The notes beneath the pieces are model-generated. The model ran no database searches. It was not told the origin of the DNA and worked only from the letters and a program-made list of their open reading frames with translations. Positions 26,908 to 48,326 of a DNA stretch of 64,000 nucleotides are shown piece after piece (position 1 is the first letter of the stretch; each line of letters opens with the position of its first letter). The position numbers and the translations under genes are program-made. This DNA comes from a virus (lineage: Duplodnaviria; Caudoviricetes): positions 111,780 to 175,779 of IMG/VR virus record IMGVR_UViG_3300022217_000003; one strand, given 5' to 3'.

Positions 26908-27009
26908 AGGATTAGCCATTGAAGCGGCAAGAGCGAGTCTTCCGTCCTCTGAAGAAAGAGCAGCCTCTATAAGAGAATTTCTTTCTGCGGGAGTTATAAC
27001 ATCACTCAT
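26908..27009 (-). CDS. major capsid protein, exon 1 of 4 (spliced product 306 aa)
   Basis: AAGGAG RBS, MSDVITPAERNSLIEAALSSEDGRLALAASMANP; exons 102+13+251+555 = 921 nt, an uninterrupted frame. Confidence 0.85.
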
Positions 27010-27619: not shown

Positions 27620-29776
27620 TTATTTGTCACCTCCTTTACTAGGTATTTTTGTAGTCCAGATATTTTCCAGACTTTCTTTTAGTCCCTTGTCTACTGTACC
27701 GGACATTTGTGGTACCGAAGACAATCCACCTGTACGAACAAATTTTTGGCTTTTTGAGTCTCCCGCCTCCGCTTTATTCGTATTGGTTACTATATTTTCA
27801 GTAATACTCTCAAGTGCTACAAATGACACATCGTCCATTAACATCATTTTTTCCAGCTCAGAATCTTTATTAGCTTCATCAATTACATTATTTTCTACCA
27901 TGTAATCAGCAAGCTTAATAGCGGCGTTAGCCCTAACTCTTAACTGGCTTTCATTTATTAACTTACTATTATCACCCTTTGCATTCTTGAGTTCTTCACT
28001 AGTCTTGGATAATTTTTCAAGTAAAATCCTATTGCTTTTCTCTACTTCCTGCCTATAGGCATTTACCTTATCAAATTCCGCCTTATCAACTACGTTCCTA
28101 CCAGAGCCATATCTCTTAGTAAGCTTAGGCTTAATAGATTTATCTACCTCGCTTTGACTAATATACTTTTCTGGAGTAGTTAGTTTCTTTTGTAATGCAG
28201 GAGATTTACCTTTTCCAGGAGCGGCATTTTCAGCAATGATATTAATATCAGCTTTTTTAGTATCGAGGTTTAGGCTGGCTTTAACTCCAAGATTATGAGC
28301 CGTAACTTCAAACCCATCTCTATTAACCCTTGATACAATAAGCTTCCCATATTCAGGACTAGATACTTCTGCCCATTTCTCAAAACCTTTTTTGCCCCAA
28401 ATGTCTCTTACGGATGCTTCTATAATTTTCTCTTTCTTATTATAGATAGTCCAATAAGAATCCATCTTAGATGCAGTCGGAGTAAATACGGCAGTAATAC
28501 CATCTTCTGATAATCTGTCTCCAAGAGTAGCTTTTTTATCTTTCTTCTTATCTTCTTTTTCCTTTTTCTTTTTAGCCTCTTCCTTCTCTTTTTCTTTTTC
28601 CTTTTGAGCCTTTTCTTTCTCTTTCTCTTTTTTCTTATCGTCCTTGTCATCTTTCTTACTGGCCATCAAAGGTCCTTTTTTCTCATCAATAAGGTCTCTT
28701 CCCTTATCTAACAACATATCACCATCAAGAGGGTCTTTAGCTTTATCCCCCATTTCGGGCATCATTTCCTTCTTTTTCATATCAGGCTTCCCAAATGGGA
28801 CTTTAGGCTCTATGCCTTCTTCTCCTTTTTCAGTGTCTATATCAACACCAATATTTTCAGCAGCATCTTCCAGTTTTTCAACTATATCTCCTATGCCTTC
28901 TGTAGCTTCTTCTATTTCAGTAACTGCTTTTTCCAGCTCTTTCTTCTGTGGTCCTTTGTCATCCTTTTCATCTTTCTTCTCATCTTTGGGAAGGGATTTC
29001 ATGTCATTTCCACCCATTGCCTTATCATCATCTTTCTTCTCTTTTTTATCGTTCTTGACTTCGTCGTCTTCCATAGCCTGTCTGGTTATACCAAGATTAG
29101 AACCGGATGCTTTAGTAACCGCTACTGATGGAGGGGTTGGACTAATGTATTTATCCTTTGACCTCTTCACATCTTCCGCCTTTCCACCCTGTTCTTTTTC
29201 AGGGGGATAATGGACCTTTTTCATCCGGAGATCTTCCTCGACAGAACTTATCTTTGTGAGCTCATTCCTGACCTTAACCCTTGCAACACGAATTTCCTTT
29301 ATAACACTGTCATCTTTGGCCTTGTTAAAAGCCTCATTCAGCCTTGCTAACTGTCCTTTTAAATTGGACTTAAGCTTTTTAAGAGTATCCTTCCCTTTTC
29401 CAGAAGGAGTATCTTTAACATACTTATCCTTAGACCGTTCATCATCAGCTTTTCTTCCTGGATCTGGATCTGGGGAATACCTTGATTTCTCTTTAGCTTC
29501 CCTTATACCATTAAGCTGCTGTTTGGCCTTTTGAACCAACTGCTCTGTCCTGGATGCCGTTGCGGTAATATCGGTAGGTTGAATATCTGGTGCCATAGAA
29601 TTAGCACTGTTGATCACTTGCGCCTGTATAGCCACCATTTCTGATGGATTTACATCCTTTGAAGCTTTTATATTACGCACAGCCTTGTCCATTTCAATCT
29701 GATCCTCATCTCTGCCTATAGGCTCTGACCCACCTGAGTCAGCTCTTGTAATTTTCTTTCCCATATTATATTTCAC
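27620..29776 (-). CDS. putative scaffolding/prohead core protein
   Basis: 718 aa, highly charged low-complexity and coiled-coil, between protease and MCP; AGGAGG RBS. Confidence 0.6.
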   Translation of the reverse strand: MKYNMGKKITRADSGGSEPIGRDEDQIEMDKAVRNIKASKDVNPSEMVAIQAQVINSANSMAPDIQPTDITATASRTEQLVQKAKQQLNGIREAKEKSRYSPDPDPGRKADDERSKDKYVKDTPSGKGKDTLKKLKSNLKGQLARLNEAFNKAKDDSVIKEIRVARVKVRNELTKISSVEEDLRMKKVHYPPEKEQGGKAEDVKRSKDKYISPTPPSVAVTKASGSNLGITRQAMEDDEVKNDKKEKKDDDKAMGGNDMKSLPKDEKKDEKDDKGPQKKELEKAVTEIEEATEGIGDIVEKLEDAAENIGVDIDTEKGEEGIEPKVPFGKPDMKKKEMMPEMGDKAKDPLDGDMLLDKGRDLIDEKKGPLMASKKDDKDDKKKEKEKEKAQKEKEKEKEEAKKKKEKEDKKKDKKATLGDRLSEDGITAVFTPTASKMDSYWTIYNKKEKIIEASVRDIWGKKGFEKWAEVSSPEYGKLIVSRVNRDGFEVTAHNLGVKASLNLDTKKADINIIAENAAPGKGKSPALQKKLTTPEKYISQSEVDKSIKPKLTKRYGSGRNVVDKAEFDKVNAYRQEVEKSNRILLEKLSKTSEELKNAKGDNSKLINESQLRVRANAAIKLADYMVENNVIDEANKDSELEKMMLMDDVSFVALESITENIVTNTNKAEAGDSKSQKFVRTGGLSSVPQMSGTVDKGLKESLENIWTTKIPSKGGDK

Positions 29777-29827: not shown

Positions 29828-30685
29828 TTATAAACCTCCTATTTGATTTAATATATCTATAGTTTTTTGTTCTCCATATAAGCTCATTAGTATAGCTGTT
29901 GCTTCTACTAAATCATTTTCATTATTTGCGACTTTTGATATTAATCTTGCTGCCCTATCTGCAGGGACTGTAACCCAAGATAGTTCTACAAAGTTAACCT
30001 CTCTGTTGTCTTCATATACATCTCTATGTTCACCCTCATGATATATTTTTCTAGCCTTATGGTATTTAATATCATCACAATACTGTGATTCATTGGTAGC
30101 CAAATTACCACATATAGAACAGATAGAATATCCCACGCGACTACCCATTGAAACACTGTCAATATATTTCTTATCAATTGCCCTGACCAGATCTGGGTCT
30201 TTATTTGCATCAACCGCCAATAAGTTTTCTATAAACCTACCATGATGATTAGCTATACAATCAAGGTTGATTCCAACTGCATTATTCACATTATCACTTG
30301 CATGGTCTTTAAAATTACCTCTACCTATAAAGGTCTGATAAATATATTTATTTAATGCGGCATCAAACCTTAAAAGCTCTGGGCTATTAGGATTATCCAT
30401 AGAACCCCAGGCAAACATATCTCCGTTATCATTGGGCACGTCTCCATGCACACTAATAACATGATAGTAATGAAATTCAGGATCGTAATCCCCTATCCTG
30501 TGAAACTTATTATCTTGATAAGCTCTCTTCTCTGCCACCTCTACATAATTAGCCATTACTTTATCATACTTATTCAAGAAGTCATTTTTATTCCCGAATG
30601 AATTACTTGCTATTTTAATCTTGGAATTGCCCTCTCCATACGGAGTTATGGGATCATTCCATGATGCCCTTTTTATCATACTCAT
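29828..30685 (-). CDS. prohead (capsid maturation) protease
   Basis: PNDNGD, NFKDH, SVSMG, CSICG, FVELSWV.PAD motifs of HK97-type/DUF2213-like maturation proteases; synteny portal-protease-scaffold-MCP. Confidence 0.75.
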   Translation of the reverse strand: MSMIKRASWNDPITPYGEGNSKIKIASNSFGNKNDFLNKYDKVMANYVEVAEKRAYQDNKFHRIGDYDPEFHYYHVISVHGDVPNDNGDMFAWGSMDNPNSPELLRFDAALNKYIYQTFIGRGNFKDHASDNVNNAVGINLDCIANHHGRFIENLLAVDANKDPDLVRAIDKKYIDSVSMGSRVGYSICSICGNLATNESQYCDDIKYHKARKIYHEGEHRDVYEDNREVNFVELSWVTVPADRAARLISKVANNENDLVEATAILMSLYGEQKTIDILNQIGGL

Positions 30686-30690
30686 AATGA

Positions 30691-30831
30691 TTATCCCTTG
30701 TTCTTCTTGTTAGCTTTTTTAATCATTGTTTCAGAATCACTTGCCTTCTTTGCGAACTTAACAAGATCTTCCTCGTCTTCAATCTTCTTAATATTACTCT
30801 TGGTATTAACACCTGTTTTCATCATTGCCAT
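30691..30831 (-). CDS. small basic protein (46 aa; not in ORF track)
   Basis: GGAGG RBS; MAMMKTGVNTKSNIKKIEDEEDLVKFAKKASDSETMIKKANKKNKG. Confidence 0.45.
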   Translation of the reverse strand: MAMMKTGVNTKSNIKKIEDEEDLVKFAKKASDSETMIKKANKKNKG

Positions 30832-33389: not shown

Positions 33390-36263
33390 TTATGCGGGTG
33401 GCTTAACTTCACCTACTCCGCCTCCCATTTCTCCTTGACCGGGAGGTAATGGGGTTGTTCCTGCTCCGCCAGGAGCTACCGTTGGAGGCTTTGCTCCACC
33501 CCCACCTACACCTGGAGCCCCTCCTGGGGCAGGAGTAGCAGGCGCAGTGCCTGGTGCAGCCGCAGGCGCACCCGTGGGAGTTACGTTTATACCTGTTTGT
33601 GTCTGTATATTCTTTAATTCTTGGGCTAATTGTATATCTTTCTTGCGTTCTTTCTCAATTAACTTCTCTTCTTTCTCTAAATCCAAGCCCAAATAGGTCA
33701 ATAATGTCTTCTTACTTATCAATCCACGTTGTTGCATGTTCTGATATAGTGTTTTTTGCTGTGCATCATCCTTTAATCTCATTAGTTCCCACTCTATTTC
33801 GGGAACTATAAGCTCAGATTCGCCCTCATCATTAGTTTTATAGAAGCCCTGAACCTTTGCGACAGGTTTATATACATATTCTATGACCCATTCGCTTAAT
33901 ATATCTTGAAATCTTAGATATCTATTGACCAATACCTGCAAAGCTACGCTTGCATTGGCAAAAGTAACCCCTTCTGTGGTAATTAAAGCCTTAGATATTC
34001 CTAATCCTGACAATATTTCTTTATCCACAAAGTCTAACTCACTTGTAAGCGGGATAATCTTCCCTGCGGAAGATATATAGTCAAAATTTATATAATTATG
34101 CCATATTAACCAACTATTTGGGTCTGAGCTTGCTTGGTCAAGGGCGTTTGCAACATTCTGAAGCACTGCTTCTGTCGCAGGATGAGTTTCATCCCCTACT
34201 TTAACAACTTTTATAGGTCTCCAATGCCTCTTTGCTATCGCAAACTGCGCCCTGCGTAACATATCTTTGTATATAAGTGCTTTAAAAATACATTTCAATG
34301 GACTTACACCATATACTTCATACATAGAATGTTTATTTGCTAGATGGCTTACCTGTGGTATCTCTATTTTTTCATCTCTGCCCTCTGCCACAATTTCAAA
34401 GTTACTCAGAGGTACCTTTTGATTCTTTGAAACATAAGATCTTATCTGCGGATCAATACTATTATATATTTCAATCGGCTTTTTACTGTTAACTATTCTC
34501 TTTAAAGCATCATCGGGATCTAATTTTATAATTGGGTCTGCGAATATATTAGATTCTATCTCCACATAGTCAGGATTAAGCGTTACGAACTTATCCCATC
34601 TCCCTTCATCATCGTCCCAAAGCCCGAAAGGTATCGCATTTCCAAGCATGTTAAATTCCAAAGAAATAAATCTTAAAATCTGTGGCAATTTTAAAATATC
34701 AAATGCTAATTCATCAAAATATTTTTGAATTTTCGGATCTTCACAAACATTTCTTAATCCCGTAACAGGAAACTCCGCATTTAAATGTACACCTGTATTA
34801 ACTATGGGTTCGGTCCTTGTATAGTGTCTGGACCACTGGTTACAATTAGCTACAGCAACATTATTTGCCACATAAGAATGTTCGCCCTCTATTGTTAAAT
34901 TATAAACCTTCCCTTTATATTCTTCTAATTCAATTCCTTTTATTTCTAATACTATATAATTATTCCATATCCACCTTCTGTGACTATTCCATTTTGATTT
35001 ATTCTTTATTCCCAATTTGGTAGCTTCATTATTGTTTATTTCTACATTCCAAGACAAGCTATATCCTGGATCACCTGCAAATCCTGTATCCCTTTCTTCT
35101 TTACGGACAATTGACATTATCTGACACCTTTTAAGTATCTCGTGAATTTGATCTGATAAATCCTTAGATGCGCTACATGTTCTTATATCCCCAGTTTTAT
35201 CAACATGCCCATCTCCATTTATATATGCCTTAACTAATTCAATTTGTAATTCTGGGGGGCAATCCATAACCTGTTGTGATATTCTTTTATAATGAGAATA
35301 CTCCCCACAATGTTCATAAAACAATTCTGCTAATTTCTTACCAGAAGTAGTAACCAAACAAGTATTAACATCTTTTCGTAAATTTATATTAACAGTGGCT
35401 CCGAATTCTTTTTCAAGTAATTCTTTTACTTCTGCAACATAGGTATCTTTCTCACTGATATTAAAAGAGAACTGCATCCCCCTAAGCACCCCATCTTTTC
35501 TTCTATAAAAATTACCCTCTGCTAAAAAATAACCAAATAATCTCATTATATTTTTATTAATTGGTTTTACCTCTTGCAATTCAAAAACTCTATTGCTTCC
35601 AGATTTATATTTATAAACTTCTATATCAAATAATTTATTTTCAGTGGCTATGGGAGACAACATAAAATCGCCTATTTCCAATTCATCCACCCGAACTTTT
35701 TCAACTTTAATCTCTTGGGGAACACACCCTTTGTATCTATCTCTACAATGTGCCGTTATATTCTTCTGGCAAAACTTTATTTCATTGCTCTTGTGCCTAC
35801 AATTTCCCACTTCTTTTTTTATACAAAATATCTTGTGATTCCCCGTAATCTCTAATTTGGTCTCTATTGTAGCTAACTTTAACTTATATATATCCTCATC
35901 TATCTCATTGATTATAACATCCTCAACTTGACCCCTATCTCCATTTTTATCTAAAATCCAATCGCCAATTTTAACTTCATCAATCCTCTTTTTTCTTCCA
36001 TCGCCCATAACTGTTGTTATATAAGGAATTATACATTCCCTCAATTTTGTTGGAAGCTGTAAATTAACAGGCTCATAAAGCGGATGAAAATAATCAGGTG
36101 ATTGTCTATTAACATTAACGGATGCATGTTTTATAATTCTTGAAGTGGGCGAGGATTTCTTTGAAGTTACTGAAGATTGATTAAGCGAAGCGGTTCTTTT
36201 TAATTCCCTGAAATGTGTTTCGGGATTATCTCGTATTAACTCAGAGCTGGTTTTTATTGTCAT
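33390..36263 (-). CDS. portal protein containing an intein (about 560 aa after splicing)
   Basis: LGNAIPF, LNPDYVEI, YGVSPLKCIFK, RPIKVVKVG, ILSGLGIS, ISKKTLL portal-like segments; Pro/Gly-rich tail. Confidence 0.8.
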   Translation of the reverse strand: MTIKTSSELIRDNPETHFRELKRTASLNQSSVTSKKSSPTSRIIKHASVNVNRQSPDYFHPLYEPVNLQLPTKLRECIIPYITTVMGDGRKKRIDEVKIGDWILDKNGDRGQVEDVIINEIDEDIYKLKLATIETKLEITGNHKIFCIKKEVGNCRHKSNEIKFCQKNITAHCRDRYKGCVPQEIKVEKVRVDELEIGDFMLSPIATENKLFDIEVYKYKSGSNRVFELQEVKPINKNIMRLFGYFLAEGNFYRRKDGVLRGMQFSFNISEKDTYVAEVKELLEKEFGATVNINLRKDVNTCLVTTSGKKLAELFYEHCGEYSHYKRISQQVMDCPPELQIELVKAYINGDGHVDKTGDIRTCSASKDLSDQIHEILKRCQIMSIVRKEERDTGFAGDPGYSLSWNVEINNNEATKLGIKNKSKWNSHRRWIWNNYIVLEIKGIELEEYKGKVYNLTIEGEHSYVANNVAVANCNQWSRHYTRTEPIVNTGVHLNAEFPVTGLRNVCEDPKIQKYFDELAFDILKLPQILRFISLEFNMLGNAIPFGLWDDDEGRWDKFVTLNPDYVEIESNIFADPIIKLDPDDALKRIVNSKKPIEIYNSIDPQIRSYVSKNQKVPLSNFEIVAEGRDEKIEIPQVSHLANKHSMYEVYGVSPLKCIFKALIYKDMLRRAQFAIAKRHWRPIKVVKVGDETHPATEAVLQNVANALDQASSDPNSWLIWHNYINFDYISSAGKIIPLTSELDFVDKEILSGLGISKALITTEGVTFANASVALQVLVNRYLRFQDILSEWVIEYVYKPVAKVQGFYKTNDEGESELIVPEIEWELMRLKDDAQQKTLYQNMQQRGLISKKTLLTYLGLDLEKEEKLIEKERKKDIQLAQELKNIQTQTGINVTPTGAPAAAPGTAPATPAPGGAPGVGGGGAKPPTVAPGGAGTTPLPPGQGEMGGGVGEVKPPA
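34845..36035 (-). mobile_element. intein with LAGLIDADG (DOD) endonuclease, 397 aa
   Basis: starts CIIPYITTVMGDG...IDEVKIGD, block B ITGNHKIF, RLFGYFLAEG and LVKAYINGDG, ends VYNLTIEGEHSYVANNVAVAN followed by +1 Cys. Confidence 0.9.
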
Positions 36264-37087: not shown

Positions 37088-37288
37088 CTATCTAGTTTGT
37101 ATTTGTCTGGCCATATCATTATAGTCCGACACTTCCTGTTCATCATAAAGATAACCTGTATCATTCTGGCTCATTATAGGTTGCTTATTTGTTTTTTCAG
37201 TCTTTAACTTGCGCGGGTTCACATAATCCCTCTCTTGTCTTATTGGATTTGGAACATCTGCTTGTTTTAATATTATTACTTTATTCAT
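37088..37288 (-). CDS. small protein with MNKVIILKQA leader (putative head-internal protein)
   Basis: shared N-terminal leader. Confidence 0.5.
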   Translation of the reverse strand: MNKVIILKQADVPNPIRQERDYVNPRKLKTEKTNKQPIMSQNDTGYLYDEQEVSDYNDMARQIQTR

Positions 37289-37300
37289 ATCTATGAGTCC

Positions 37301-37744
37301 TTAATAGCCGATAGCCTGTCCTGAGCTTGTGCCGGTGTCATATGATTTATCTGTGCCTTGTCCTGTAAAATCTTGCCTTCCACCCATACCATCCCAATTT
37401 AATTCTTGTAGACCATCGGGTTCATTTCTGAATCTTCGCCGATGCTTCTGCCTAAAGGGTTTGTCTTTAGGTTCTTTATTAAACATATCTATATTCTGAT
37501 CGTTTTCTAATGGATATAAATTGTCTGCTCTTTTTAATATTATTATTTTATTTTTGCACTCAACGCATATCTCGCCATCAGGGGTATCAAAAATGGCTAC
37601 ATTAGAATCCATTTCCTTTATAATGCCTCTGTGCTTTTCTCCCAATAAATTCTCTGTTTCTATATAATCACCTACCCCAATTAACAAATTGCCCTCATCG
37701 TCCCTTACCTTGGTAGCTTCTTTTAGTATTATTACTTTATCCAT
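37301..37744 (-). CDS. protein with MDKVIILKEA leader and internal KIIILKRA copy
   Basis: shared leader present twice. Confidence 0.5.
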   Translation of the reverse strand: MDKVIILKEATKVRDDEGNLLIGVGDYIETENLLGEKHRGIIKEMDSNVAIFDTPDGEICVECKNKIIILKRADNLYPLENDQNIDMFNKEPKDKPFRQKHRRRFRNEPDGLQELNWDGMGGRQDFTGQGTDKSYDTGTSSGQAIGY

Positions 37745-38107
37745 TTATTTATCTTCGCAATCCTCTTCTTTAATATCAAATATTTTATCCGATCCATCCC
37801 CATCCCATCCAAAAGATTTTGTATAATCTTTATCATCGGGATCAACCAATATTTCAAAGCTATGCCCTGCATTTCCTATTCCTTTTATATATTCTAATAA
37901 CTCAATCAAATTTTTATCTGTATCTTTTACAGTAAGGGTATACTTTTTTCTACCTGACTTAGCTTTTCTTATTATTACTTTATCCATACTAATCTTCCCA
38001 TTTCCATTCAAAAGAACCATCACCTTGTTCAACCAAGGTCTTTGTTGGCTCTCTGAGTCCTTGCTCTTTAGCTCTACCAAGTGCCCCATCGCAGTTACAT
38101 TTATCAT
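37745..38107 (-). CDS. protein containing MDKVIIRKA motif (possible start at 37987)
   Basis: motif at internal ATG; GNAGHSF and FGWDGDGSD segments. Confidence 0.5.
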   Translation of the reverse strand: MINVTAMGHLVELKSKDSESQQRPWLNKVMVLLNGNGKISMDKVIIRKAKSGRKKYTLTVKDTDKNLIELLEYIKGIGNAGHSFEILVDPDDKDYTKSFGWDGDGSDKIFDIKEEDCEDK

Positions 38108-38312
38108 AGGGCTTATTACAATGATTACAAACTATTACAGAATCCCCACTATGCATAAACGTCTACCAAACCTCCTAAGCCTAATCCTATTGCCAATCCT
38201 AATATTTGATTGTCCACTTTTGGTGTACATTTGTCCTCTAATTGTGTACAAGGTTGTACATCTTTGTGTAAAGATTCATACATATCTGTTCGGTATTGCA
38301 AACAAATGTTTT

Positions 38313-38783
38313 CTATTGCGAACATATTGGCACCTTATATAATTCAAAATGCGGGCTATCATCAAAACTCTGGTCAATTAATATTTCCTGATCTCTATCC
38401 CAATTTCCGCCCCACCTTATTAAGTGTTCTATTTTATTTTCGTTATATAGTCTTTGCGCTGTGCTTGTTATAACTCCTGAGACTAAGCAAAGATTGTTTA
38501 AATCATACGCAAGTTCCTTGTGTCCTGGTATATATATGTATATATCAAATGCCAAAGACACGGGTTCTTTAACATGCATTGCCCTTTTTAATTCTTCAGG
38601 GATGCGTGGATCAAGAGTTGAACTTCCTTCCAGGAAATATTCAAGTTGTTTTTTAAAAGTTCTCTTGCCTTCTCTTATACCGAAATCAACCGGGCTTACC
38701 TTAATTGATTCTTCGGCTATTATTATCAAATCATCGTGGCAAGTATACAAATTTTTCCTTGACCGTTTCCCAAATTTAAACAT
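38313..38783 (-). CDS. endolysin, M15-family L-Ala-D-Glu peptidase
   Basis: FKFGKRS..NL, DFGIREGKRT..Q, H..AFDI, IRWGGNWD, DSPHFEL. Confidence 0.85.
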   Translation of the reverse strand: MFKFGKRSRKNLYTCHDDLIIIAEESIKVSPVDFGIREGKRTFKKQLEYFLEGSSTLDPRIPEELKRAMHVKEPVSLAFDIYIYIPGHKELAYDLNNLCLVSGVITSTAQRLYNENKIEHLIRWGGNWDRDQEILIDQSFDDSPHFELYKVPICSQ

Positions 38784-38784
38784 A

Positions 38785-39024
38785 TTATTTCTTCCCCTTT
38801 TGGTTTAAACCTATTACTTCCGCTCCCTTTTTAAAGGTCGTCCCTAATACATATGCGCCAATAATAAAATCTACTATTGGAGTAAATACTTTCAGCATAT
38901 GTGCACAAGAATCAGTTAAGTATGGTATGAATGCGCCTACTAATGCCATAAGGCAAACAGTTACCACAATAACAAAAGCGGCGACGACCCCTTTTATCCA
39001 ATATATATTATTATAAGCTTTCAA
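38785..39024 (-). CDS. holin candidate
   Basis: 79 aa, two hydrophobic segments, basic C-terminus, immediately upstream of the endolysin. Confidence 0.55.
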   Translation of the reverse strand: MKAYNNIYWIKGVVAAFVIVVTVCLMALVGAFIPYLTDSCAHMLKVFTPIVDFIIGAYVLGTTFKKGAEVIGLNQKGKK

Positions 39025-39217
39025 TTGCGTCTTCTATAACAATAACTACCTTTTCACATACCTTAACAGACAGGTATTCCTGCAGAGAAGGATAAATATA
39101 TTTCTTTACCATTTTTCTAAGATGTCTTTTGAGTATAGGTTTTATCATATTGTCCCACTTGGCTTTAATGTTTTCTTTACTGAAAAAAACTTTAATTTCA
39201 CTGATAAGATTACCCAT
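39011..39217 (-). CDS. hypothetical protein
   Basis: GGAG RBS; 68 aa. Confidence 0.4.
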   Translation of the reverse strand: MGNLISEIKVFFSKENIKAKWDNMIKPILKRHLRKMVKKYIYPSLQEYLSVKVCEKVVIVIEDAIESL

Positions 39218-39236
39218 AAAATTAATACTCCTTTAA

Positions 39237-42200
39237 TTAAATTAACGGCTCCATACTTGAGGGTTTGTATTTTTTATCTTTGTATTTGTTTCTATTCATG
39301 GCTACTTGTCCTGGGCTTACTTTTTCTTTTTTACCATCTACTTCTACTTCGTAGTATGAATGTGTCCCACTTTCACCATTTGCTTTTTTATCAAGGTCTA
39401 TAACTTCTCCGCTTGCAGTTATTTCTTCTGTGGCAATATCCTCAACCTTACCTATTCTATCTCTAATCGCTTCTTGAATTTGCGAAGGTATTTCATTTTC
39501 TTCTATCTTTCTACCAAGATCCTCTATGGCTATTGCGCCTACATCACCGAGAAATTGATTAAATCCCTGTGGAGACATAGCATTTTCACTCATGCCATAA
39601 GCATCCTCACCTATTAACACCGTATATCTATCAAAGGATTCTCCTTCGTTGTCATATACTTTAACCTCAGACACATCTCCTTGATTATCATACCCCATAT
39701 CTTCTTCTAGCTTATGCATAACTAAACTAATATCCCTTGCGTCCATTCCTTGTTCAAGACCTTGTTGTTCTATCTCTTCTTTACCCCATCCATATTCCTT
39801 TGCCTGGTTTACAAGATCATCCATAGCACTGAAATCTTCTGGTGTAACCGCAGCTACTGCCCCTCTGCCCTGATGCTTATAATGAAAATCCATTATGTTT
39901 ATTACTTCATCAGGATCAATATCAACTCCGCCACCCCTTCTATATATAGCTATCTCATCACTATCTGCATATGGTTCAAGTATGTATTCATCTTCATCAA
40001 GATCTAGTGTCTTTAGTATTTCACTATCATCATAAGATATTATTTCTTCTCCATCATCGTAGATGGTCCAAACGCTTCCTCCGTAAGTATCTGAGTAACC
40101 TGAGTATAATTCAGCTTTTTTTTTTAATGATGCGTGTTTCTTATCATACGAATCCGTTCCCTTAAATACAGTTTTGCCTCCACCTCTATCAGTAAAATAA
40201 TCTGACAATTCTTTCTTATCCTCCTTGCTCATAGCCTTCATCTCTTTTTCTGAGAAGGCATGAACACATGTGGCACATTTATAATATGCTCCACCCACTC
40301 CTGATTCAAAATAAGCGCAGTCTCTGCATTTGTTTACGTCATTCGGTCTACCATTCTTGGCTATCTTAGTTGTGCCATTGCCGAAAGAATATTCTTTATC
40401 AAATCTACTTGCGGTAATGGTAACTATGGATTCATCTTCTTTCTTTATCCGGACAACACTATTGTTAGAACCTGTTATGATTCCTTCTGATTTATCTTTC
40501 TTTGATATGACATCTTCGCCAACAATATTATTACTTGCGAATGCCATGCCTTCATCTTCTATTCCTTCTGATAGTGCTACATCTAATTCATTGAGCTCTT
40601 CATCAGAACCGGCGAAGAGGTTGACTATGTTATTAAACTGTTCTATTATCCAATCTAATACACCTGCTTCTTTATGGAATGATGCGAGCGTCTGTCTCTG
40701 TTTTGTTTCAGGATATACAGCAGCCGTTTCAGCCACTGTCTTTGATTCATAAGATAATAGATCCCTGACATGATTGACTTTCTCTTCCATCTTGTCACCA
40801 TAGTCAATTATCATTCTTGACAATACTTCATCTGATTTTATCTTAGCAGGATCTGTCTGATTATATCTATCTAAATGAGCAACGAGTATATCTTTAAACT
40901 TCCTTACCTCGCCCATTGGTATAGTGCTTATTACATCTAGTTTTAATGACTCTTGTAATTTCGCAAGGTCTTCTCTGAGATTTGATTTCTCTGTCTGAAG
41001 GGGTTCTTGCTTTTGCTTCATCTTCAATTGAAGTTGCTGTATCTTTTCCTGTATCTTTGCGGACTCCTTCTTTGCCTGTGCATCTATCTCTTGTATCCTA
41101 GACTCCAATGCTTCTAAGTCCTGTAACTCTTTCTGTATTGTTTCTGATACAAGATTAGGAATTACCTCACCCTTCTGTGGAGCAGGGGCAAATGACGGTC
41201 TTATCTTTTGTTTAATAAGACTTGGCTCTAATCTCTCTGGGGATTCCTGTGGGTTATTATCATCTTCTATAGCTACTTCTGCTTCTTTATTTAAAGATGC
41301 TTCTTTCTGTGGTTGCATCATATTAGTTTCTTCTACAAAATTTGCCCAGGCTTCTAATGGTGTTAATTTTTCTTCTGGATCATATTGTTCTCTAAATTTT
41401 TCAGATACTTCAAATGGTATATCCTTCATTGTCTTCACTATTTCAAAAGACTCTTGGGGCGTTCCTTGTGTAGCTATTTCTCTAAATTCTTGAAATAGAT
41501 CTGCTATCTTATTTAAGGATGCTTCTTTCCCTAATGATTCTAATACAGGCATAAATATTGCTTTGGCTTCTTCTAAAGAAGTAGAGTATATATAGAAGTT
41601 TATATCATTGGGATATGATTCGGATGGGTCTGTGGTAAATAATTTACCTGCGCCAACACTGTGTAATTGTTTTATTATTTCATCAGGGTTATCCCCTTCG
41701 TCCAACTCTATAGTAAAATTAAATTTACCCACAGGGTTCTCATCATATAGTCTTGCGGCTTCTTTTTTCTTGTCATCATCCTTCGGGGCCTTCCCGTATT
41801 CTTTTCCTTCTCTTCCCCTTATCTCATCTTTCTTGGCATCGGATAGATCGCTCCATATTGCGCCTACTGTTTTATCTACTTGATCACTATCATAATCTGG
41901 ATTGTCTTTCTTCACCTTCTCTGTTTTCTCACCCCACCACTTCTTTGGGGGCTTTAAACTGGAGTCGGATTCCTTCTTCGCCCTCTGCGTTATATTCCCA
42001 TCGACATCTTTCTCCTGCTTACGCATATCCTTTTTAAGTTCCTGCTCACTCTTTACCATTTCCTGAACTTCTTCTTTTTGTGGGTCTTTGTCTTTCTTAT
42101 AAACAGTCTGCTTTACTCGGAGGTTTTTCTCCTGCTCATCTTGCTTGGGAACAGAGGTCTTCATACTATCTAACAGATTGGCATCTACGGTTGAATTCAT

Positions 42201-42809
42201 CTGCATTTCGGATGTCTGTATCTGATCTTGGGCTTTAATCCTTTTGCCTATCTTCATATTCTTCTGGTCTTTTATCCAACTATGTATCGCCCTTCTTATT
42301 TTATTGGTCTGATTACCCTTTATCTTTAATTTCTTTTTATCTATATACTCAGATAACTTCTCGAACTCTTTTGAATCCAAAATATAGTTTTCTTCTTTTT
42401 CAACAGAGGCTACTATTGAGGTGAAGTCATTACTGATCTGGGCATTTGTTTTCCTGTCATAATTAGGCTTTGTGTTACCAAAATTAGTAACAAGGTTGCC
42501 CACTGCATAAAATCCTGAGCGTTCAACAACAGGAATAGTATTTTTCTGTATCAACCCACTGTTTCTATAAACATCTTTCGTGGCACTGTCTACTTCTGTC
42601 ATTAATATAGTGCCTACTACTTTGCCTATATCTGATTCTTTACCACTTGATAAGGCTTTTTTGACAAGCTCTTCTTGTTTCTCGCTCAATTTAATACCAG
42701 TCTTATTTAGATATTCAGACAACCGCTTATCTTCTGTTGAAGCCGTCTTGGTCATTCCACCAAGTGTATTGTCTGTAAACTCCTTTAACCAATTTGCCAT
42801 CTTTATCAT
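39237..42809 (-). CDS. large multi-domain acidic protein with K-x-A linkers (putative head-internal polyprotein)
   Basis: linkers GKEASLNKIA, QKEASLNKEA, LASFHKEA, KHASLKKKA separate unrelated domains including a Cys4 motif and YDNEGESFDRYTV. Confidence 0.55.
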   Translation of the reverse strand: MIKMANWLKEFTDNTLGGMTKTASTEDKRLSEYLNKTGIKLSEKQEELVKKALSSGKESDIGKVVGTILMTEVDSATKDVYRNSGLIQKNTIPVVERSGFYAVGNLVTNFGNTKPNYDRKTNAQISNDFTSIVASVEKEENYILDSKEFEKLSEYIDKKKLKIKGNQTNKIRRAIHSWIKDQKNMKIGKRIKAQDQIQTSEMQMNSTVDANLLDSMKTSVPKQDEQEKNLRVKQTVYKKDKDPQKEEVQEMVKSEQELKKDMRKQEKDVDGNITQRAKKESDSSLKPPKKWWGEKTEKVKKDNPDYDSDQVDKTVGAIWSDLSDAKKDEIRGREGKEYGKAPKDDDKKKEAARLYDENPVGKFNFTIELDEGDNPDEIIKQLHSVGAGKLFTTDPSESYPNDINFYIYSTSLEEAKAIFMPVLESLGKEASLNKIADLFQEFREIATQGTPQESFEIVKTMKDIPFEVSEKFREQYDPEEKLTPLEAWANFVEETNMMQPQKEASLNKEAEVAIEDDNNPQESPERLEPSLIKQKIRPSFAPAPQKGEVIPNLVSETIQKELQDLEALESRIQEIDAQAKKESAKIQEKIQQLQLKMKQKQEPLQTEKSNLREDLAKLQESLKLDVISTIPMGEVRKFKDILVAHLDRYNQTDPAKIKSDEVLSRMIIDYGDKMEEKVNHVRDLLSYESKTVAETAAVYPETKQRQTLASFHKEAGVLDWIIEQFNNIVNLFAGSDEELNELDVALSEGIEDEGMAFASNNIVGEDVISKKDKSEGIITGSNNSVVRIKKEDESIVTITASRFDKEYSFGNGTTKIAKNGRPNDVNKCRDCAYFESGVGGAYYKCATCVHAFSEKEMKAMSKEDKKELSDYFTDRGGGKTVFKGTDSYDKKHASLKKKAELYSGYSDTYGGSVWTIYDDGEEIISYDDSEILKTLDLDEDEYILEPYADSDEIAIYRRGGGVDIDPDEVINIMDFHYKHQGRGAVAAVTPEDFSAMDDLVNQAKEYGWGKEEIEQQGLEQGMDARDISLVMHKLEEDMGYDNQGDVSEVKVYDNEGESFDRYTVLIGEDAYGMSENAMSPQGFNQFLGDVGAIAIEDLGRKIEENEIPSQIQEAIRDRIGKVEDIATEEITASGEVIDLDKKANGESGTHSYYEVEVDGKKEKVSPGQVAMNRNKYKDKKYKPSSMEPLI

Positions 42810-42838
42810 TTGTATTTACTCTCCTTATTTATTTCTCT

Positions 42839-43078
42839 CTATGGTAATGGGCCAGATATGGATTTATCACTATCGCCAAAGCTGGTCGATCGATTATATG
42901 ATTCCCCTGTATCGTCTCCACCTATTTGATCTCTATCCCAAAAGGGTGTCTTTGTATTGCCCTTTTCGTTCTCTCTCTTCTGTGGACCTGTAGTCCAATA
43001 GTAATCTCTTTTATAATTATCCCCATGACTCTTGGGGTCTGTGCTTATGTTCTCTGCTAGTATTATTACTTTGTCCAT
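42839..43078 (-). CDS. small protein with MDKVIILA leader
   Basis: shared leader. Confidence 0.5.
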   Translation of the reverse strand: MDKVIILAENISTDPKSHGDNYKRDYYWTTGPQKRENEKGNTKTPFWDRDQIGGDDTGESYNRSTSFGDSDKSISGPLP

Positions 43079-43080
43079 AT

Positions 43081-43323
43081 TTATTCGCCGTATTCCATAC
43101 GTGCATCTCTAGCATCTTGTAATGCATCAAAAGCCTTATCGAGTTCTATTTTTTCTTGGGGAGTTAACTTCTCACCATTTTCTATTTTCGTTCTATAGTG
43201 GAATACTATATTCCAAAAATGATCTTCATTTCTTTTTAGCCATTCTCTAGTAGATTCAGATTCACTTCTCTCTAATGCAGGATTACTACCAAGATATGCT
43301 TTTCTAATAATGACTTTATCCAC
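43081..43323 (-). CDS. small protein with (M)DKVIIRKA leader
   Basis: GTG start; shared leader. Confidence 0.5.
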   Translation of the reverse strand: MDKVIIRKAYLGSNPALERSESESTREWLKRNEDHFWNIVFHYRTKIENGEKLTPQEKIELDKAFDALQDARDARMEYGE

Positions 43324-43657
43324 TTGTTAACTCTTCTATTGGATCATACGCTATTCTATCTTCTATACTTTCAACTACTGTATTATAATCAGCACTATCT
43401 TCTGCAAAATCACCCACGTTAAATACATCTATTTCCTGTCCATCTTCTGTAAATATATTAATCTGATGTCCGCCATACCATGCATATATAAATCCGCCAT
43501 TTGGATCATGCTTGACGTATTTTGCACCATCAAGTTGTTCGCCTAAGGATGCTTTTTTATCTATAGCCTGAACAACACCTGTAGCCTCCTTAAATAACTT
43601 CTCGTTTTCTGCAAACTTATCAAGCCACTCTGAGTGTTTATCTTTCTTGTGTATCAT
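43316..43657 (-). CDS. putative head-internal protein
   Basis: DKKAS linker then domain GAKY...YAWYGGHQINIF..DGQEID, paralogous to a domain in 43672..44478. Confidence 0.5.
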   Translation of the reverse strand: MIHKKDKHSEWLDKFAENEKLFKEATGVVQAIDKKASLGEQLDGAKYVKHDPNGGFIYAWYGGHQINIFTEDGQEIDVFNVGDFAEDSADYNTVVESIEDRIAYDPIEELTSG

Positions 43658-43671
43658 AATTTATTATTCTC

Positions 43672-44478
43672 CTATACCGCTTCGTATTCATCAACTGTAA
43701 CCCAGTTGTTATCTATATATTTTTCTACTGTTACCTGGTTATTATACGGCATACCGTCTTCTACTGTCATTCTTGAGAGCCAAACCCTTGTATCTTCATC
43801 TTCGTATTTAAGATTGTCTGTTTGACCTTGGGATATTGTAGGCATTTCAAGAAGCTCCCTAAGTGACCATTCTTCGTAGCCTTCGTAATCTTCTTCCTCG
43901 TAATCTTCTATAATTATATTATCTTCTTCTAAAGGATAATCAGCCTTCTTCTTCAACTTCAACTTATCGCATATATGAGCTTCTACTTCTTCCAGAGTAG
44001 CTTCGGGTCTTTCCTCACTTCCAATAACATCGCAATCGACTTCTTCGCCATTCTCATCCATGGCATATACATTATGCCCGCCGAAGAATGCGTATGTGAG
44101 ATTATTGTTTTTGTCTTTATAAGAATATCTTGCGCCCTTCAACCATATTGGGTTTGCTTCTTTAACTACTTCTGGCTGTGCATCAAACTCCTGATTATTA
44201 ATTATAACTTTGTCCATTGATTTACTCTCTCCTTTATGCTTTAATCTTCTTTCCATTTCTGGGAGTCCTTTTTTGTCGTCATAATAATCAGGCATATTCT
44301 CGCCCTCTGTATGGTCTCTTGCAATAGACTCCGCCATATCTCCCATTGACATATCAAGCTTATTGTCCTGCTTGATGTCTTTCTTTATTTTATTATAAGT
44401 AGGTCTGTGTTCCATCTCTATTTTCTTACCCACTTCTAATTCATTATTCTCTGCTTTATTTATTATTACCTTATCCAT
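43672..44478 (-). CDS. multi-domain protein with two MDKVII motifs; DUF5661-like N-domain
   Basis: MDKVIINKA, GKKIEMEH...IARDH...PDYY, internal MDKVIINN at 44217. Confidence 0.55.
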   Translation of the reverse strand: MDKVIINKAENNELEVGKKIEMEHRPTYNKIKKDIKQDNKLDMSMGDMAESIARDHTEGENMPDYYDDKKGLPEMERRLKHKGESKSMDKVIINNQEFDAQPEVVKEANPIWLKGARYSYKDKNNNLTYAFFGGHNVYAMDENGEEVDCDVIGSEERPEATLEEVEAHICDKLKLKKKADYPLEEDNIIIEDYEEEDYEGYEEWSLRELLEMPTISQGQTDNLKYEDEDTRVWLSRMTVEDGMPYNNQVTVEKYIDNNWVTVDEYEAV

Positions 44479-44481
44479 GAT

Positions 44482-46503
44482 TTATACTGCCATCTCTGTC
44501 TGACTATAATAGTCAGATAAGAATAAGGCTATATCATCTGGTTCTATGGGCAATCTATTCTCCTGTGCAAAATCAGTTATAACCTCAGTGGCATCTTCAC
44601 GGGAGAAGGCATACTTATTAAAGTGTTCTTCTGAGAAGCCGAGTGATTGTATATAACTATCTACTTCTTCCTGCCATACATTCTTCCATGGATCATCACC
44701 TATTACCTGGCCTTGTTTCATTTCTACCAAGTCCATTAGTATGCTTCTTATTCCGCCTACTGTTTGGGTTGTTGCTTTTTTATTTAAAGAAGCTTCTTTT
44801 CCTATTTTAAAGCCACTTGGAATATATTGGTATAAATCAGATGCCCCTTTATTAACAAGGGAAGAAAGCCAATGTCTCATAAACATATACAGCGTATCTC
44901 TTCCTCTGTCACCAGAAGCATTTAGTTTTTTTCTAAAATCTTCATTAGCTTCATATATACTTCTTGCCCTATCGGCTAATGTATCTATGTACCCATCTCT
45001 CATTTCATATACAGATTCATATAATTCTTCAGGAACAAATGACATAAATTCATCATATACTGTTTCGGCTACAATCTCTGGCATTAAAGCAGTTTCATCT
45101 TCCATGTCTGCTTCTTTATTTAAAGAGGCTTCTTTGTCAGATTCCTTTTCATTGTCATCATCTTCTTTATCCTCGGATGGCTCTTCTTTTTTGTCATCCT
45201 TTTCTTTATCTTTATCATCTTTGTCTTTATCTTTATCTTTTGATTTAGACTTCTTGCCTGAGAAGTTTTCTAATTGCTCTTGTCTCTTCTTCGCTTCTTC
45301 CTCAGTATCATAAGTGCCCATATTCTTTCCGTTTTTAGATTGAACTTGATATCTGCCATCTACCTCTACTATCTTTGCTTTTTTATTTAAACCTGCGACT
45401 GCTTTATGCTTAGTAACATATTCATATACTTCTTGTGGTGTGTTAGCAAACTTTCTCCCTAAGATAGATACCCTACCTTCGGGATCTACTATACGCCATC
45501 CATAAGCCTCGCCACCTTCCGTTATATGATATCCATTAATATCTTCTGCTTCCTTATCCAAAGAAGCTTTCTTCTTTGACCAATTATCATCTTCATCTTT
45601 CTTCCCGAAGTCTTTCTCTGAGCCATATGGTTTTTGTTCATTGCCCCATTGTCCTGCGCTTGTTTCATTTGGTCCCTGTGTGAGATACTTGGTAGGGACA
45701 CACTTGCCGCCTATTTGTTTTACATTCTCCACGGGAGTTTTCCATAACTTACAATACGTCTTTCCGGCTATACCATTTGGAATCCTATGTTCCAATGCAT
45801 CCTGGGCATTCCCTATATACACCTGGTGTGTACATGAGGATCTTAATTCATCTGGTATGGTCTCGTCCTTCTTTGCGTTCTTTACAAAGGCAACTATTAT
45901 CTTATCTGATAAATCATTGAAGGATACTTTATAATCCTTATCCTCATCTAGTCCCTCATATGCCAATTCATCTTTTGCCTCTTCTAATATATTCTCATCT
46001 TCTGTGGATAATACATACGTATCATCATCTAACTCTCTGGCTATCTTTGTATTACCTAATACAGAATTGAACTTATCTAATTTATCTGATTCATCTATTT
46101 CATTTTGTCGTTCATGCACGACATTTTCTTCATCCTTACTATCGCCAACCTGATCTATTTCCATAGCTTTCCGGATAGAGGATACGACATTATCATTGAG
46201 CCAAACTCTATTGTTTAACTTATCTTCCGCCCTCTGTAGATTAACAATATAGATTCCATCCTGTTCTGTATCAGATACTATCTCTTCTTCATTGAGTGCA
46301 TGAACTATCATTTTCGGCACATCTACATTAATATTGCCGATCTTGATATCCTTCTGATACATTATGTGGTTCTTCGCTTCCTTTGTCATATGTTCAAAGG
46401 AATATGCACATAACATTTCAAGCTCATAATCTGATAATTTAGATGCGAATTTCTTTAATTCAGCTTTCATTATTCTTATCCTCCAAGTCCGTGGCCAGAC
46501 CAT
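44482..46503 (-). CDS. multi-domain acidic protein with K-x-A linkers
   Basis: KKKASLDKEA, GLNKKA, DKEASLNKEA, GKEASLNKKA linkers. Confidence 0.55.
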   Translation of the reverse strand: MVWPRTWRIRIMKAELKKFASKLSDYELEMLCAYSFEHMTKEAKNHIMYQKDIKIGNINVDVPKMIVHALNEEEIVSDTEQDGIYIVNLQRAEDKLNNRVWLNDNVVSSIRKAMEIDQVGDSKDEENVVHERQNEIDESDKLDKFNSVLGNTKIARELDDDTYVLSTEDENILEEAKDELAYEGLDEDKDYKVSFNDLSDKIIVAFVKNAKKDETIPDELRSSCTHQVYIGNAQDALEHRIPNGIAGKTYCKLWKTPVENVKQIGGKCVPTKYLTQGPNETSAGQWGNEQKPYGSEKDFGKKDEDDNWSKKKASLDKEAEDINGYHITEGGEAYGWRIVDPEGRVSILGRKFANTPQEVYEYVTKHKAVAGLNKKAKIVEVDGRYQVQSKNGKNMGTYDTEEEAKKRQEQLENFSGKKSKSKDKDKDKDDKDKEKDDKKEEPSEDKEDDDNEKESDKEASLNKEADMEDETALMPEIVAETVYDEFMSFVPEELYESVYEMRDGYIDTLADRARSIYEANEDFRKKLNASGDRGRDTLYMFMRHWLSSLVNKGASDLYQYIPSGFKIGKEASLNKKATTQTVGGIRSILMDLVEMKQGQVIGDDPWKNVWQEEVDSYIQSLGFSEEHFNKYAFSREDATEVITDFAQENRLPIEPDDIALFLSDYYSQTEMAV

Positions 46504-48326
46504 TCACTGGGGTCTGCATTTAATTTACTATCTCCATGGAACTCTCTGGCATTTTGCCCATCACCAACATTGGTATTCTCGTCCATGGTCTTTTTATCAT
46601 ACCTCATTGTTTTCTTTTTATTATATTCTTTTCCGCCCCAAGGTTTTTTGTCTTGGTCTTCTGCCTTAACTATCTTATCTGCATACTTATTAAGTATGGC
46701 ATCTGCCTTCTTATTTAAATCATTCATTATTACTTCCGAGTCTTTATTTAATAGCATATGTGATATGATTCTTTTGAATGCTTTATAATCAGATGGTTCC
46801 ATTACGTTAGATGCCAAGGATTCCAATACAGATTCATTACCTAAATCTTGATTTTTTATTTTCCAATATCCATCCGCCCATTCAAGATCTTCTATATCAC
46901 CTAATTTCTCATATTCGGTTTCTACTTGTTCGCCATATACATCTTCAATTTTATCAACAGTAACCAATCCGTCATACCCTATATATCTGATTTCATCACC
47001 TATTTCTGGTATTAGTTTATTTTCAGCTTTCTTCTTCATTCTTTTATTAGAAGAAGCTTCTTTTTCTTCTAATGTAGAAAATGGTGCTTCGCAATCACAT
47101 TCTTCTCCCGTGTATTGAGTATTCCCTGATTCGTCTTTTCTTATTGTGAATCTCTTTCCGCATTCATCACACTCCGCTAAATATTCCTTACTCGCTGCCT
47201 TCTTATCCATTCTTTTATTACCAGAAGAAGCCAATACAGTAACTAATTGTTCTGCCCCTTCTAAAGGAGCGAGATTATAATCCTGTCCTGTTATGGCATT
47301 AATGAGTTCTTGTTTATATGTTCCCTCATTTGGCCTGCCCTGTATCTGTTCTTGGTATACTCTCTGTAACCATGCCTGTGCGTTCTCTATACCAGAGGCT
47401 AAGGCGTTCTTCAGGTTATTCCATATGGTTCTTACCCAATCTTCCAACTCGGCCATTGCGGCTTCTCTGTTCTTTATCTGTGTAAAAGCCTTCTTTGTCT
47501 TGAACTCCATGTAAGTAGTATTGGTGGCTTTCATAATATCCACAGGGGGAGTTAATCTATTTAACTTACGCAAGTCCTTGTCCCATAATATACCGATTAG
47601 GTCTGGATATACATCAACAACCTTTCCTGCCGATCCTTCTTTTACCGTATATCCATCTTCATACTCTGCGGTCTTTATACTGAATACTCTATCTGATATA
47701 TTGTAACTTGCTTGTGGCTGAGGTACAGGAGGAGCAGGTTGTTTTGCCTGATTAACAGGAGGAATAATACTATTAACTGGTGGTGGTCCCGCAGGTAATT
47801 GTCCTGCGGGTGCTTTAGGCTTCCCCCATGGTTGAGGTTTCGGTGCAGGAGCTACGGGTGTAGGCTTCGTGCCAGGCTGTGGTGCTGCTCCGGGCGCACC
47901 AGGCACAGGTTTTGCCCCAGGTGCCGGTACATTCTGCTTGGTTTCCAGTGATGGTGTAACCATACCGAAGTCACCTAAGTCTACCTTCAATCCTAACTCT
48001 TTAAACTTATTAAGCTTTTCGGCAAAGAACTCTACGTCCTTCTTATCAAACGCAGCCATTTCTTCTGCGTCAAAGTCCTGTGCCTTAAACCTTAATATCT
48101 CTTTATTGCCTTTATTGATAACAACATCACCATCGAACTTTATCTTGATGCCCTTATCTTCTTTGGGAGGCTTAGGTTCTGTATCTTCGCCCTCTTCTTT
48201 ATTAACAGGTTCGGGCTTATCCTCTTCTTCTTTATCGTCTTTCTTTTCTTCTATATCTTCCTTGGGCTTTTTATCTTCTTCGTCTTCTGCCCTTTTTATA
48301 CGTAATGAACTGCCTTTTAAAAACAT
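46476..48326 (-). CDS. multi-domain protein with Pro-rich segment and K-x-A linkers
   Basis: RIKRA, SIKTA, ASSGNKRMDKKA, ASSNKRMKKKA; CDECG...CDC zinc motif. Confidence 0.55.
   Translation of the reverse strand: MFLKGSSLRIKRAEDEEDKKPKEDIEEKKDDKEEEDKPEPVNKEEGEDTEPKPPKEDKGIKIKFDGDVVINKGNKEILRFKAQDFDAEEMAAFDKKDVEFFAEKLNKFKELGLKVDLGDFGMVTPSLETKQNVPAPGAKPVPGAPGAAPQPGTKPTPVAPAPKPQPWGKPKAPAGQLPAGPPPVNSIIPPVNQAKQPAPPVPQPQASYNISDRVFSIKTAEYEDGYTVKEGSAGKVVDVYPDLIGILWDKDLRKLNRLTPPVDIMKATNTTYMEFKTKKAFTQIKNREAAMAELEDWVRTIWNNLKNALASGIENAQAWLQRVYQEQIQGRPNEGTYKQELINAITGQDYNLAPLEGAEQLVTVLASSGNKRMDKKAASKEYLAECDECGKRFTIRKDESGNTQYTGEECDCEAPFSTLEEKEASSNKRMKKKAENKLIPEIGDEIRYIGYDGLVTVDKIEDVYGEQVETEYEKLGDIEDLEWADGYWKIKNQDLGNESVLESLASNVMEPSDYKAFKRIISHMLLNKDSEVIMNDLNKKADAILNKYADKIVKAEDQDKKPWGGKEYNKKKTMRYDKKTMDENTNVGDGQNAREFHGDSKLNADPSEWSGHGLGG

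Follow-up and report, generated by a model that had tools for sequence, protein, structure and literature searches.

Why do small phage genes that otherwise have nothing in common begin with the same few residues? The question arises from a window of 64,000 nucleotides, the final 64 kb of a 175,779-bp contig (IMG/VR record IMGVR_UViG_3300022217_000003, positions 111,780 to 175,779), which belongs to a phage genome and carries nearly all of its genes on the minus strand. A first-pass annotation of the window had pointed to a family of short open reading frames (ORFs) sharing an N-terminal leader of the form M-D-K-V-I-I-x-K-x-A, and had proposed that this leader, here called the tag, addresses diverse cargo to the phage head in the manner of the capsid targeting sequence (CTS) of phage T4. 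Our analysis indicates that selection acts on the tag peptide, that the tag is kept in four related phages and that it belongs to a broader code of candidate protease sites in the head module. By analogy with T4 we judge, on a modest balance of probability, that the tag serves as a CTS-like head-incorporation leader coupled to an Ala-specific prohead protease, with some of its cargo strung into polyproteins.

The source phage is an uncultured relative of megaphage G, and the C-terminal part of its portal protein is 39% identical to the portal of this Bacillus megaphage. Four related metagenomic loci, L002, L008, L009 and L010, were found through portal homologues by protein search and contig look-ups; their portals are 49-57% identical to the one studied here (search figure). 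Portal-based scans of viral and metagenome contigs yielded few relatives, namely L004 (the same contig as L006), L005 and L007, and a blastn search of the region against phage records returned no match.

Tag copies in the contig

The tag, M-[DN]-K-[VI]-I-I, was found at eight start codons of the contig and in one internal copy without Met. Seven of the eight start-codon copies lie within 37.1-44.5 kb of the window, just upstream of the portal gene, and the small genes that bear them form two groups with an ORF of 1190 amino acids (aa) and a small lysis cassette between them. Every copy inside the window is on the minus strand and in frame with an ORF, and the leaders listed by the first-pass annotation were all present where it had placed them. 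The copies, together with a loose variant and the eighth start-codon copy, are as follows.

44452-44478, minus strand: leader with a K-A end, 9 codons, at the N-terminus of the 268-aa ORF 43672-44478 (18.4 bits)
44194-44217, minus strand: second leader copy, with its Met kept, at residue 88 of ORF 43672-44478 (18.4 bits)
43297-43323, minus strand: leader with a K-A end, on the 80-aa ORF 43081-43323, which has a GTG start
43055-43078, minus strand: leader ending in L-A without Lys, on the 79-aa ORF 42839-43078
37961-37987, minus strand: leader with a K-A end, on the 80-aa gene 37745-37987
37715-37744, minus strand: leader with a K-x-A end, 10 codons, on the 147-aa ORF 37301-37744
37526-37555, minus strand: Met-less internal copy, K-N-K-I-I-I-L-K-R-A, within ORF 37301-37744
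37259-37288, minus strand: leader in its Asn variant with a K-x-A end, on the 66-aa ORF 37088-37288
53756-53782, minus strand: M-S-K-D-I-I-K-I-A, a loose variant that begins ORF 53231-53782
Contig C1:85934-86158 (= L032:5135-5359), minus strand, outside the window: ORF with a further exact tag copy at contig position 86101

When a profile was run over the 3,626 start codons that have at least 40 open codons after them, the eight copies with Met scored 14.2-18.4 bits, the next site 10.0 bits and the remainder at most 6.3 bits. The core [DN]-K-[VI]-I-[IV] occurred 10 times in called ORFs, compared with 1.1 ± 1.0 times in within-protein shuffles (maximum of 4 in 200), and a chance origin of the tag copies is excluded. 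The variant at 53782, which had been described as similar, is present and matches hydrophobic-x-K-x-A but scored only 3.8 bits as a leader.

At 37987 the ATG is the true N-terminus, with a 55-aa ORF in another frame (37989-38156) stopping one base upstream. The copy at 44217 has a Shine-Dalgarno-like AAGGAGAG ahead of it, near 44225-44232, and is therefore a probable internal start or recent gene fusion, and the Met-less copy at 37555, because its nearest DNA match is the leader at 37288, looks like a former gene start that is now fused. Internal copies that retain Met, at 44217 of the window and in L002 and L010, have a Shine-Dalgarno 7-9 nucleotides (nt) upstream, indicating that the functional place of the tag is the N-terminus. 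The tag at 86101 heads a 55-residue Cys-rich module with a C-x-x-C-A-Y motif similar to a zinc-ribbon-like segment in the 1190-aa head ORF; an origin of this copy as a frameshift extension of the tail chaperone was rejected, since the ORFs are ~195 nt apart.

The sequences behind the tag are unrelated from gene to gene, as the first-pass annotation had held. After removal of the first 10 residues, BLASTP detected no significant mutual similarity among the cargo modules, with the single exception of a match (E 1e-9) between ORF 43316-43657 and the second module of ORF 43672-44478. Searches of the tagged ORFs against Pfam and PHROGs returned nothing save PHROG 37997 for one C-terminal domain, and neither the M-D-K-V-I-I type of tag nor the phage G type described below was found as a string in the literature searched. 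A signal peptide or lipoprotein was rejected because no hydrophobic core follows the tag, and the leader of a ribosomally synthesized and post-translationally modified peptide was rejected because the tag is far too short and no partner enzymes are nearby.

Constraint on the peptide and conservation in relatives

The first-pass annotation had also noted conservation of the leader DNA and had named a signal acting at the RNA level as the competing account. Comparison of codons in 24 tag copies from five phages (this phage, L002, L008, L009 and L010) showed that the DNA is conserved only in part. Second codon positions are invariant and third positions vary, Val being encoded by GTA in 12 copies, GTT in 7 and GTC in 1, and Ile by ATA, ATT and ATC alike. 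Replacements are few and conservative (K/R, V/I and I/L), the DNA upstream of the tagged genes is unlike between copies, and both the Met-less in-frame copy and a copy with ACG preserve the peptide. Because third positions vary while second positions do not, the constraint on the tag acts on protein and not on DNA; synonymous sites are less conserved than amino acids, and an RNA-level signal was rejected on this codon evidence.

The same comparison bears on a more general proposal, that the conserved gene start is a signal in the nucleic acid, which either enhances translation initiation or provides a short site of recombination through which cassettes are swapped. Its codons are very AT-rich, several tagged genes of the window lack a good Shine-Dalgarno, and leader-coding DNA of T-even phages is linked to polymorphic internal-protein loci in the account of Repoila 1994 given by PMC3012670. 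Nevertheless, the pattern of codon variation, the conservative replacements, the lack of conserved upstream DNA and the peptide retained in the Met-less and ACG copies all argue against such a signal, as does the use of different codons by phage G for its cognate peptide, and we consider it very improbable.

In each of the four related loci the tag opens three or four genes, all of which lie immediately ahead of the portal. With a profile built from the copies of this genome alone, the tagged genes were the top start sites in L002, L009 and L010, and in L008 three copies scored just below one opposite-strand ORF. In all five phages one tagged family is placed two genes ahead of the portal, with ORF 37088-37288 as its member here; the tagged genes include at least one such conserved core family and are not variable cargo throughout. 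The search of the genome and its relatives placed the motif in a cluster upstream of the portal in five phages and once in the tail module, and the cognate form of phage G lies at sites scattered genome-wide.

Fading paralogy, in which tandem duplicates diverged everywhere except in a short N-terminal stretch without a specific role, could also leave a shared gene start. Consistent with such an origin, the tagged genes are clustered, and the leader DNA of ORF 37088-37288 is very much like that of the second half of ORF 37301-37744, with a faint resemblance further downstream. However, the tag is invariant across phages with the portal divergence given above, and the cargo is not alignable. Furthermore, the same tag precedes domains that are found elsewhere behind other motifs, as described below, and we regard fading paralogy, too, as very improbable.

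A wider hydrophobic-x-K-x-A code in the head module

A K-A or K-x-A end was present in 14 of the 24 tag copies (~60%) and a partial motif in four more. Related motifs were found throughout the head module. Among 32 head-module ORFs, hydrophobic-x-K-x-A occurred 43 times, compared with 11.5 ± 3.2 expected (z 9.8), and 27 times with [SDET] at P1', compared with 3.3 expected (z 12.4). The motif was at expectation in the remaining 243 ORFs of the genome, and the reversed motif was not enriched. The large ORFs beside the tagged genes contain eight copies of A-S-L-[ND]-K-x-A, compared with 0.2 expected. The ORFs that carry these sites, and a candidate partner, include the following.

39237-42809, minus strand: polyprotein-like head ORF of 1190 aa with eight hydrophobic-x-K-x-A sites, three of which are A-S-L-[NK]-K-x-A junctions
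44482-46503, minus strand: 673-aa ORF with eight hydrophobic-x-K-x-A sites, four of the A-[SG]-L-[ND]-K-x-A type
46476-48326, minus strand: 616-aa ORF with four hydrophobic-x-K-x-A sites
33390-36263, minus strand: portal gene, intein-bearing, with two K-x-A motifs followed by Ser within the N-terminal 50 residues
29828-30685, minus strand: prohead protease with a predicted gp21/assemblin fold and candidate self-processing sites at Ala7, Ala26 and Ala253
30691-30831, minus strand: conserved micro-ORF of 46 aa with two K-x-A sites, adjoining the protease on its upstream side
27620-29776, minus strand: Lys/Glu-rich scaffold-like protein of 718 aa, a candidate docking partner and candidate protease substrate

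The N-terminus of the 1190-aa ORF reads M-I-K-M-A, and the positions of its junction sites are kept in the orthologues of L008, L009 and L010. At the portal and protease ends, K-x-A followed by Ser is conserved, and Ala-Ser is the commonest pair at the candidate sites. Chain ends and domain junctions of this kind are typical places for proteolytic cuts. Judging from these motif counts and positions, the tag is part of a broader hydrophobic-x-K-x-A code that also marks head polyproteins, portal, protease and scaffold.

Comparison of homologous domains among the phages showed how the tag and the junction motif relate. In four phages a DUF7249 domain starts directly behind K-x-A. The peptide ahead of the domain is, in L002, a tag equipped with a Met and a ribosome-binding site of its own, and in L008, L010 and P0008 it is an A-[SGN]-L-x-K-x-A junction inside a longer protein, which in L008 and L010 itself bears the tag at its N-terminus. 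Similarly, the conserved C-terminal domain of ORF 43672-44478 lies behind L-K-K-K-A here and behind the tag in L002. Because homologous domains stand behind either element, the tag and the junction motif are interchangeable ahead of such domains and the tag is portable, in agreement with the earlier suggestion that the leader can be grafted onto new genes. The modules are thus separate genes in some phages and fused in others.

These findings raise the possibility that the tag is a processing site only, that is, an extended propeptide or a sequence that the prohead protease recognizes, serving for instance to keep cargo inactive until maturation, with head entry achieved through other parts of the protein. 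Such a role would fit the swapping of the tag with the A-S-L-N-K-x-A junction before homologous domains, the enrichment of K-x-A throughout the head module, and the minimal M-(x)-hydrophobic-K-x-A with which the protease and the 1190-aa protein begin. However, the invariant part of the tag is D-K-V-I-I and not the K-x-A end, a clean form of which is missing from 10 of the 24 copies, and internal copies retain Met and a Shine-Dalgarno, which a plain internal cut site would not need. We therefore consider a role in processing alone unlikely.

The prohead protease

The ORF at 29828-30685 matched the PHROG head maturation protease with an E value of 3e-20, and sequence searches of Pfam and the PDB did not place it. 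An AlphaFold2 model built from a 37-sequence alignment reached a predicted local distance difference test score (pLDDT) of 84, compared with an unusable 41 from a five-sequence alignment. The best solved match to the model was T4 gp21 (5jbl; Z 11.0, root-mean-square deviation (rmsd) 2.2 Å, 125 residues aligned), and the proteases of varicella-zoster virus (VZV; 1vzv, Z 10.0, rmsd 2.8 Å, 116 residues aligned) and human cytomegalovirus (HCMV; 8j3s, Z 8.0) also matched. Foldseek with the same model gave herpesvirus proteases as its top rows, with weak scores (E at least 0.03). His128 and Ser179 are invariant across the 37 sequences. Taken together, the model and its matches show that the protease has the fold of T4 gp21 and herpesvirus assemblin.

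Two of the candidate self-processing sites, Ala7 and Ala26, lie within the disordered N-terminal 30 residues, and the third, Ala253, lies just after the catalytic core in a dip of model confidence at residues 251-260. The position of this post-core site is conserved through a family of ~4,000 members. Many of these homologues have 700-1,900 residues, and these look like fusions of the protease with scaffold or cargo; several contain inteins (P0040-P0188).

A cognate tag in phage G

Phage G has at least 16 ORFs with a Shine-Dalgarno start followed by M-[KR]-R-[LI]-x-[KRS]-K, in most cases then Ser or Ala. Far fewer than one such ORF would be expected by chance, as estimated from residue frequencies. 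The form of this tag, M-K-R-L-I-K-K-[SA], is encoded by codons that differ from those used here, and it is cognate to the M-D-K-V-I-I tag. The tagged starts in phage G (NC_023719.1, W01) are spread across the 498-kb genome.

11937, 16055, 28218, 73330, 81748, 103932, 147654 and 179204 (minus strand): tagged starts, first part
207449, 214437, 245994, 254652, 255160, 256453 (minus strand), 258975 and 446709: tagged starts, remainder

One protein with a SLOG domain and one with a ParB-N domain are among the cargo behind this tag, as is the ferritin-like gp346, whose detection in purified virions is reported in PMC12484599. An [FY]-H-G-T or H-H-T motif marks three or four paralogues that also belong to the tagged set. 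As in the head module described above, the genes gp4-gp21 of phage G are enriched in K-x-A (53 compared with 26.3) and in K-x-A-[SAG] (23 compared with 5.0; z 8.4), and the rest of the genome is flat.

Neighbouring genes of the head module

Past the protease, the gene order runs through the long Lys/Glu-rich scaffold-like protein, a decoration-like protein and an interrupted shell-protein gene. The last of these (window 24584-27009) is split by a LAGLIDADG homing-endonuclease ORF at 25202-26149, and is unbroken, with 314-316 aa, in L002, L009 and L010. Inteins were observed in the portal genes of this phage (33390-36263) and L002 (2294-5113); in L008 the intein sits in the protease gene (11874-13979) and not in the portal. 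The length and sequence of the micro-ORF at 30691-30831 are kept in L008, L009 and L010 (47-50 aa).

The lysis cassette (38313-39217, minus strand) lies amid the cluster of tagged genes, and the head module of phage G is arranged likewise. Besides an endolysin-like gene (PHROG 465) it contains a pair of small ORFs, and a membrane-spanning segment is present in one or both of these.

A proposed route for tagged proteins and the points that weigh against it

On the model of T4 internal proteins, we infer a sequence of docking, cutting, packaging and ejection. An N-terminal tag, M-D-[KR]-[VI]-I-[IL], would dock the new protein or polyprotein to the interior of the prohead, through scaffold, portal or shell. 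The K-(x)-A behind the tag would provide P3 to P1 of a site cut by the phage's own prohead protease of predicted gp21/assemblin fold, with Ala as the last residue before the cut and Ser, Asp or Glu often the first one behind it. The protease may itself be trimmed at both ends and then cut after K-x-A, which would remove the 9-10-residue tag where the motif is present and separate the modules of the large head polyproteins. The same site would be used to trim portal, scaffold and the protease itself. The products would remain in the head, and some may exit with the DNA.

Several observations weigh against this proposal. The 10 copies without a clean K-(x)-A (~40% of tags) include one whole conserved gene family in the relatives, and six of the 24 copies have no Ala at positions 8-10; removal of the tag is therefore not universal. 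The copy at 86101 lies between a tail assembly chaperone gene and a tape-measure-like gene, and up to 10 kb from the portal no tag was found in L004 or L007, which are more distant relatives. In addition, the virion proteome in which gp346 is listed is permissive, as it names many enzymes that are unlikely to be virion parts (PMC12484599). The earlier suggestion of an address that is T4-CTS-like but different accordingly stands in modified form: selection on the peptide, conservation in four relatives, a cognate tag in phage G, a candidate cut motif and the predicted fold of the protease argue for it, but the tag is part of a wider code and a large minority of copies lack the motif.

Some of these observations would suit a retained assembly strand, namely a β-strand kept on the mature protein that docks small virion proteins to a common partner in head, neck or tail, with neither removal nor injection. 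The V-I-I core between Lys residues resembles a strand, the tail module encodes one copy, several copies offer no Ala as a cutting point, and the tagged family of ORF 37088-37288 is fixed in its place before the portal in all five phages. However, an identical strand on folds that are otherwise dissimilar would be unusual for a structural element, most copies run into the complete or partial cut motif, as counted above, and the same domains occur behind pure junction motifs. We consider a retained strand improbable, less so than a signal in the nucleic acid or fading paralogy but more so than a role in processing alone.

Returning to the head-incorporation leader, a more ambitious version is that phage-G-like large phages use a two-part code, consisting of the N-terminal tag and an assemblin-like Lys-x-Ala cut site, that loads and releases dozens of unrelated proteins and polyprotein modules in the capsid. 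We put this forward tentatively, at slightly less than even chances, with the SLOG, ParB-like and ferritin-like proteins as candidate cargo. If it is correct, the set of packaged and possibly injected proteins of these phages would be predictable from sequence, and the tag would be usable as a packaging handle. The head-incorporation reading itself, should it hold, would provide a sequence rule for listing head-carried proteins, which are likely to be early-acting or anti-defence factors, would explain the long, modular and fast-reshuffling genes before the portal as cargo polyproteins cut at K-x-A junctions, and would extend the T4 capsid-targeting principle to unrelated very large phages that use another tag and a herpesvirus-like specificity for Ala. 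Phage G, the only cultivated megaphage, offers a testable system, since it can be grown and at least 16 of its genes bear the cognate tag.

Comparison with known systems

Head and ejection proteins of phages phiKZ and SPN3US carry N-terminal propeptides that are cut at [SAG]-x-E (PMC10052503, PMC5694885). As may be the case here, these are large phages in which many head proteins are processed by a gp21-type protease, and their propeptides have been proposed to target proteins into the prohead, as we propose for the tag. In contrast to the tag, the phiKZ and SPN3US propeptides are mostly 100-250 residues long, are common to paralogues only and are cut after Glu.

The cargo-loading peptides of encapsulins are short terminal sequences that direct cargo of many kinds, ferritin-like proteins among it, into the interior of an HK97-fold shell. 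They usually sit at the C-terminus, stay on the cargo and follow another consensus. The presence of the phage G cognate tag on a ferritin-like protein parallels encapsulin cargo, whereas the tag described here is N-terminal and differs in sequence.

Herpesvirus assemblin cuts between Ala and Ser, with the consensus (V/L/I)-x-A-S. The C-terminus of mature assemblin is Ala (PMC4498786). The likeness to assemblin lies in the predicted protease fold (the VZV and HCMV matches above), in candidate sites with Ala at P1 and often Ser at P1', and in one candidate site directly behind the protease core, in the manner of the herpesvirus release site. The differences are that Lys is favoured at P3 and a hydrophobic residue at P5, and that many substrates would be cut rather than one scaffold, the cutting being predicted here from motifs.

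The closest parallel is provided by the T-even phages, in which an N-terminal packaging leader is all that the internal proteins have in common (PMC3012670, PMC12373910, PMC5694885). In T4 the CTS is described on IPI-III and Alt and is removed by the prohead protease gp21 (Mullaney and Black 1996 as cited in PMC5694885; PMC3012670; PMC12373910). Like the CTS, the tag has about 10 residues at the N-terminus of otherwise unrelated proteins, and in most copies it ends in a motif that may mark protease sites of other head proteins as well. As in T4, the protease is predicted to share the gp21 fold (Z 11), and tagged genes occupy the head module or its vicinity, apart from some located elsewhere. 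Unlike T4, this phage belongs to a phage-G-like lineage that has a long separate scaffold beside a small shell protein of HK97 type; some of the cargo is strung into polyproteins, and the candidate cut motif is missing from ~40% of tags. The tag has no sequence similarity to the T4 CTS, and the candidate cut falls after Ala in K-x-A rather than after Glu in [LI]-x-E; the tag is therefore an analogue and not a member of the T4 sequence family. In sum, the principle is already known from T4, and what differs here is the tag and the candidate Ala site.

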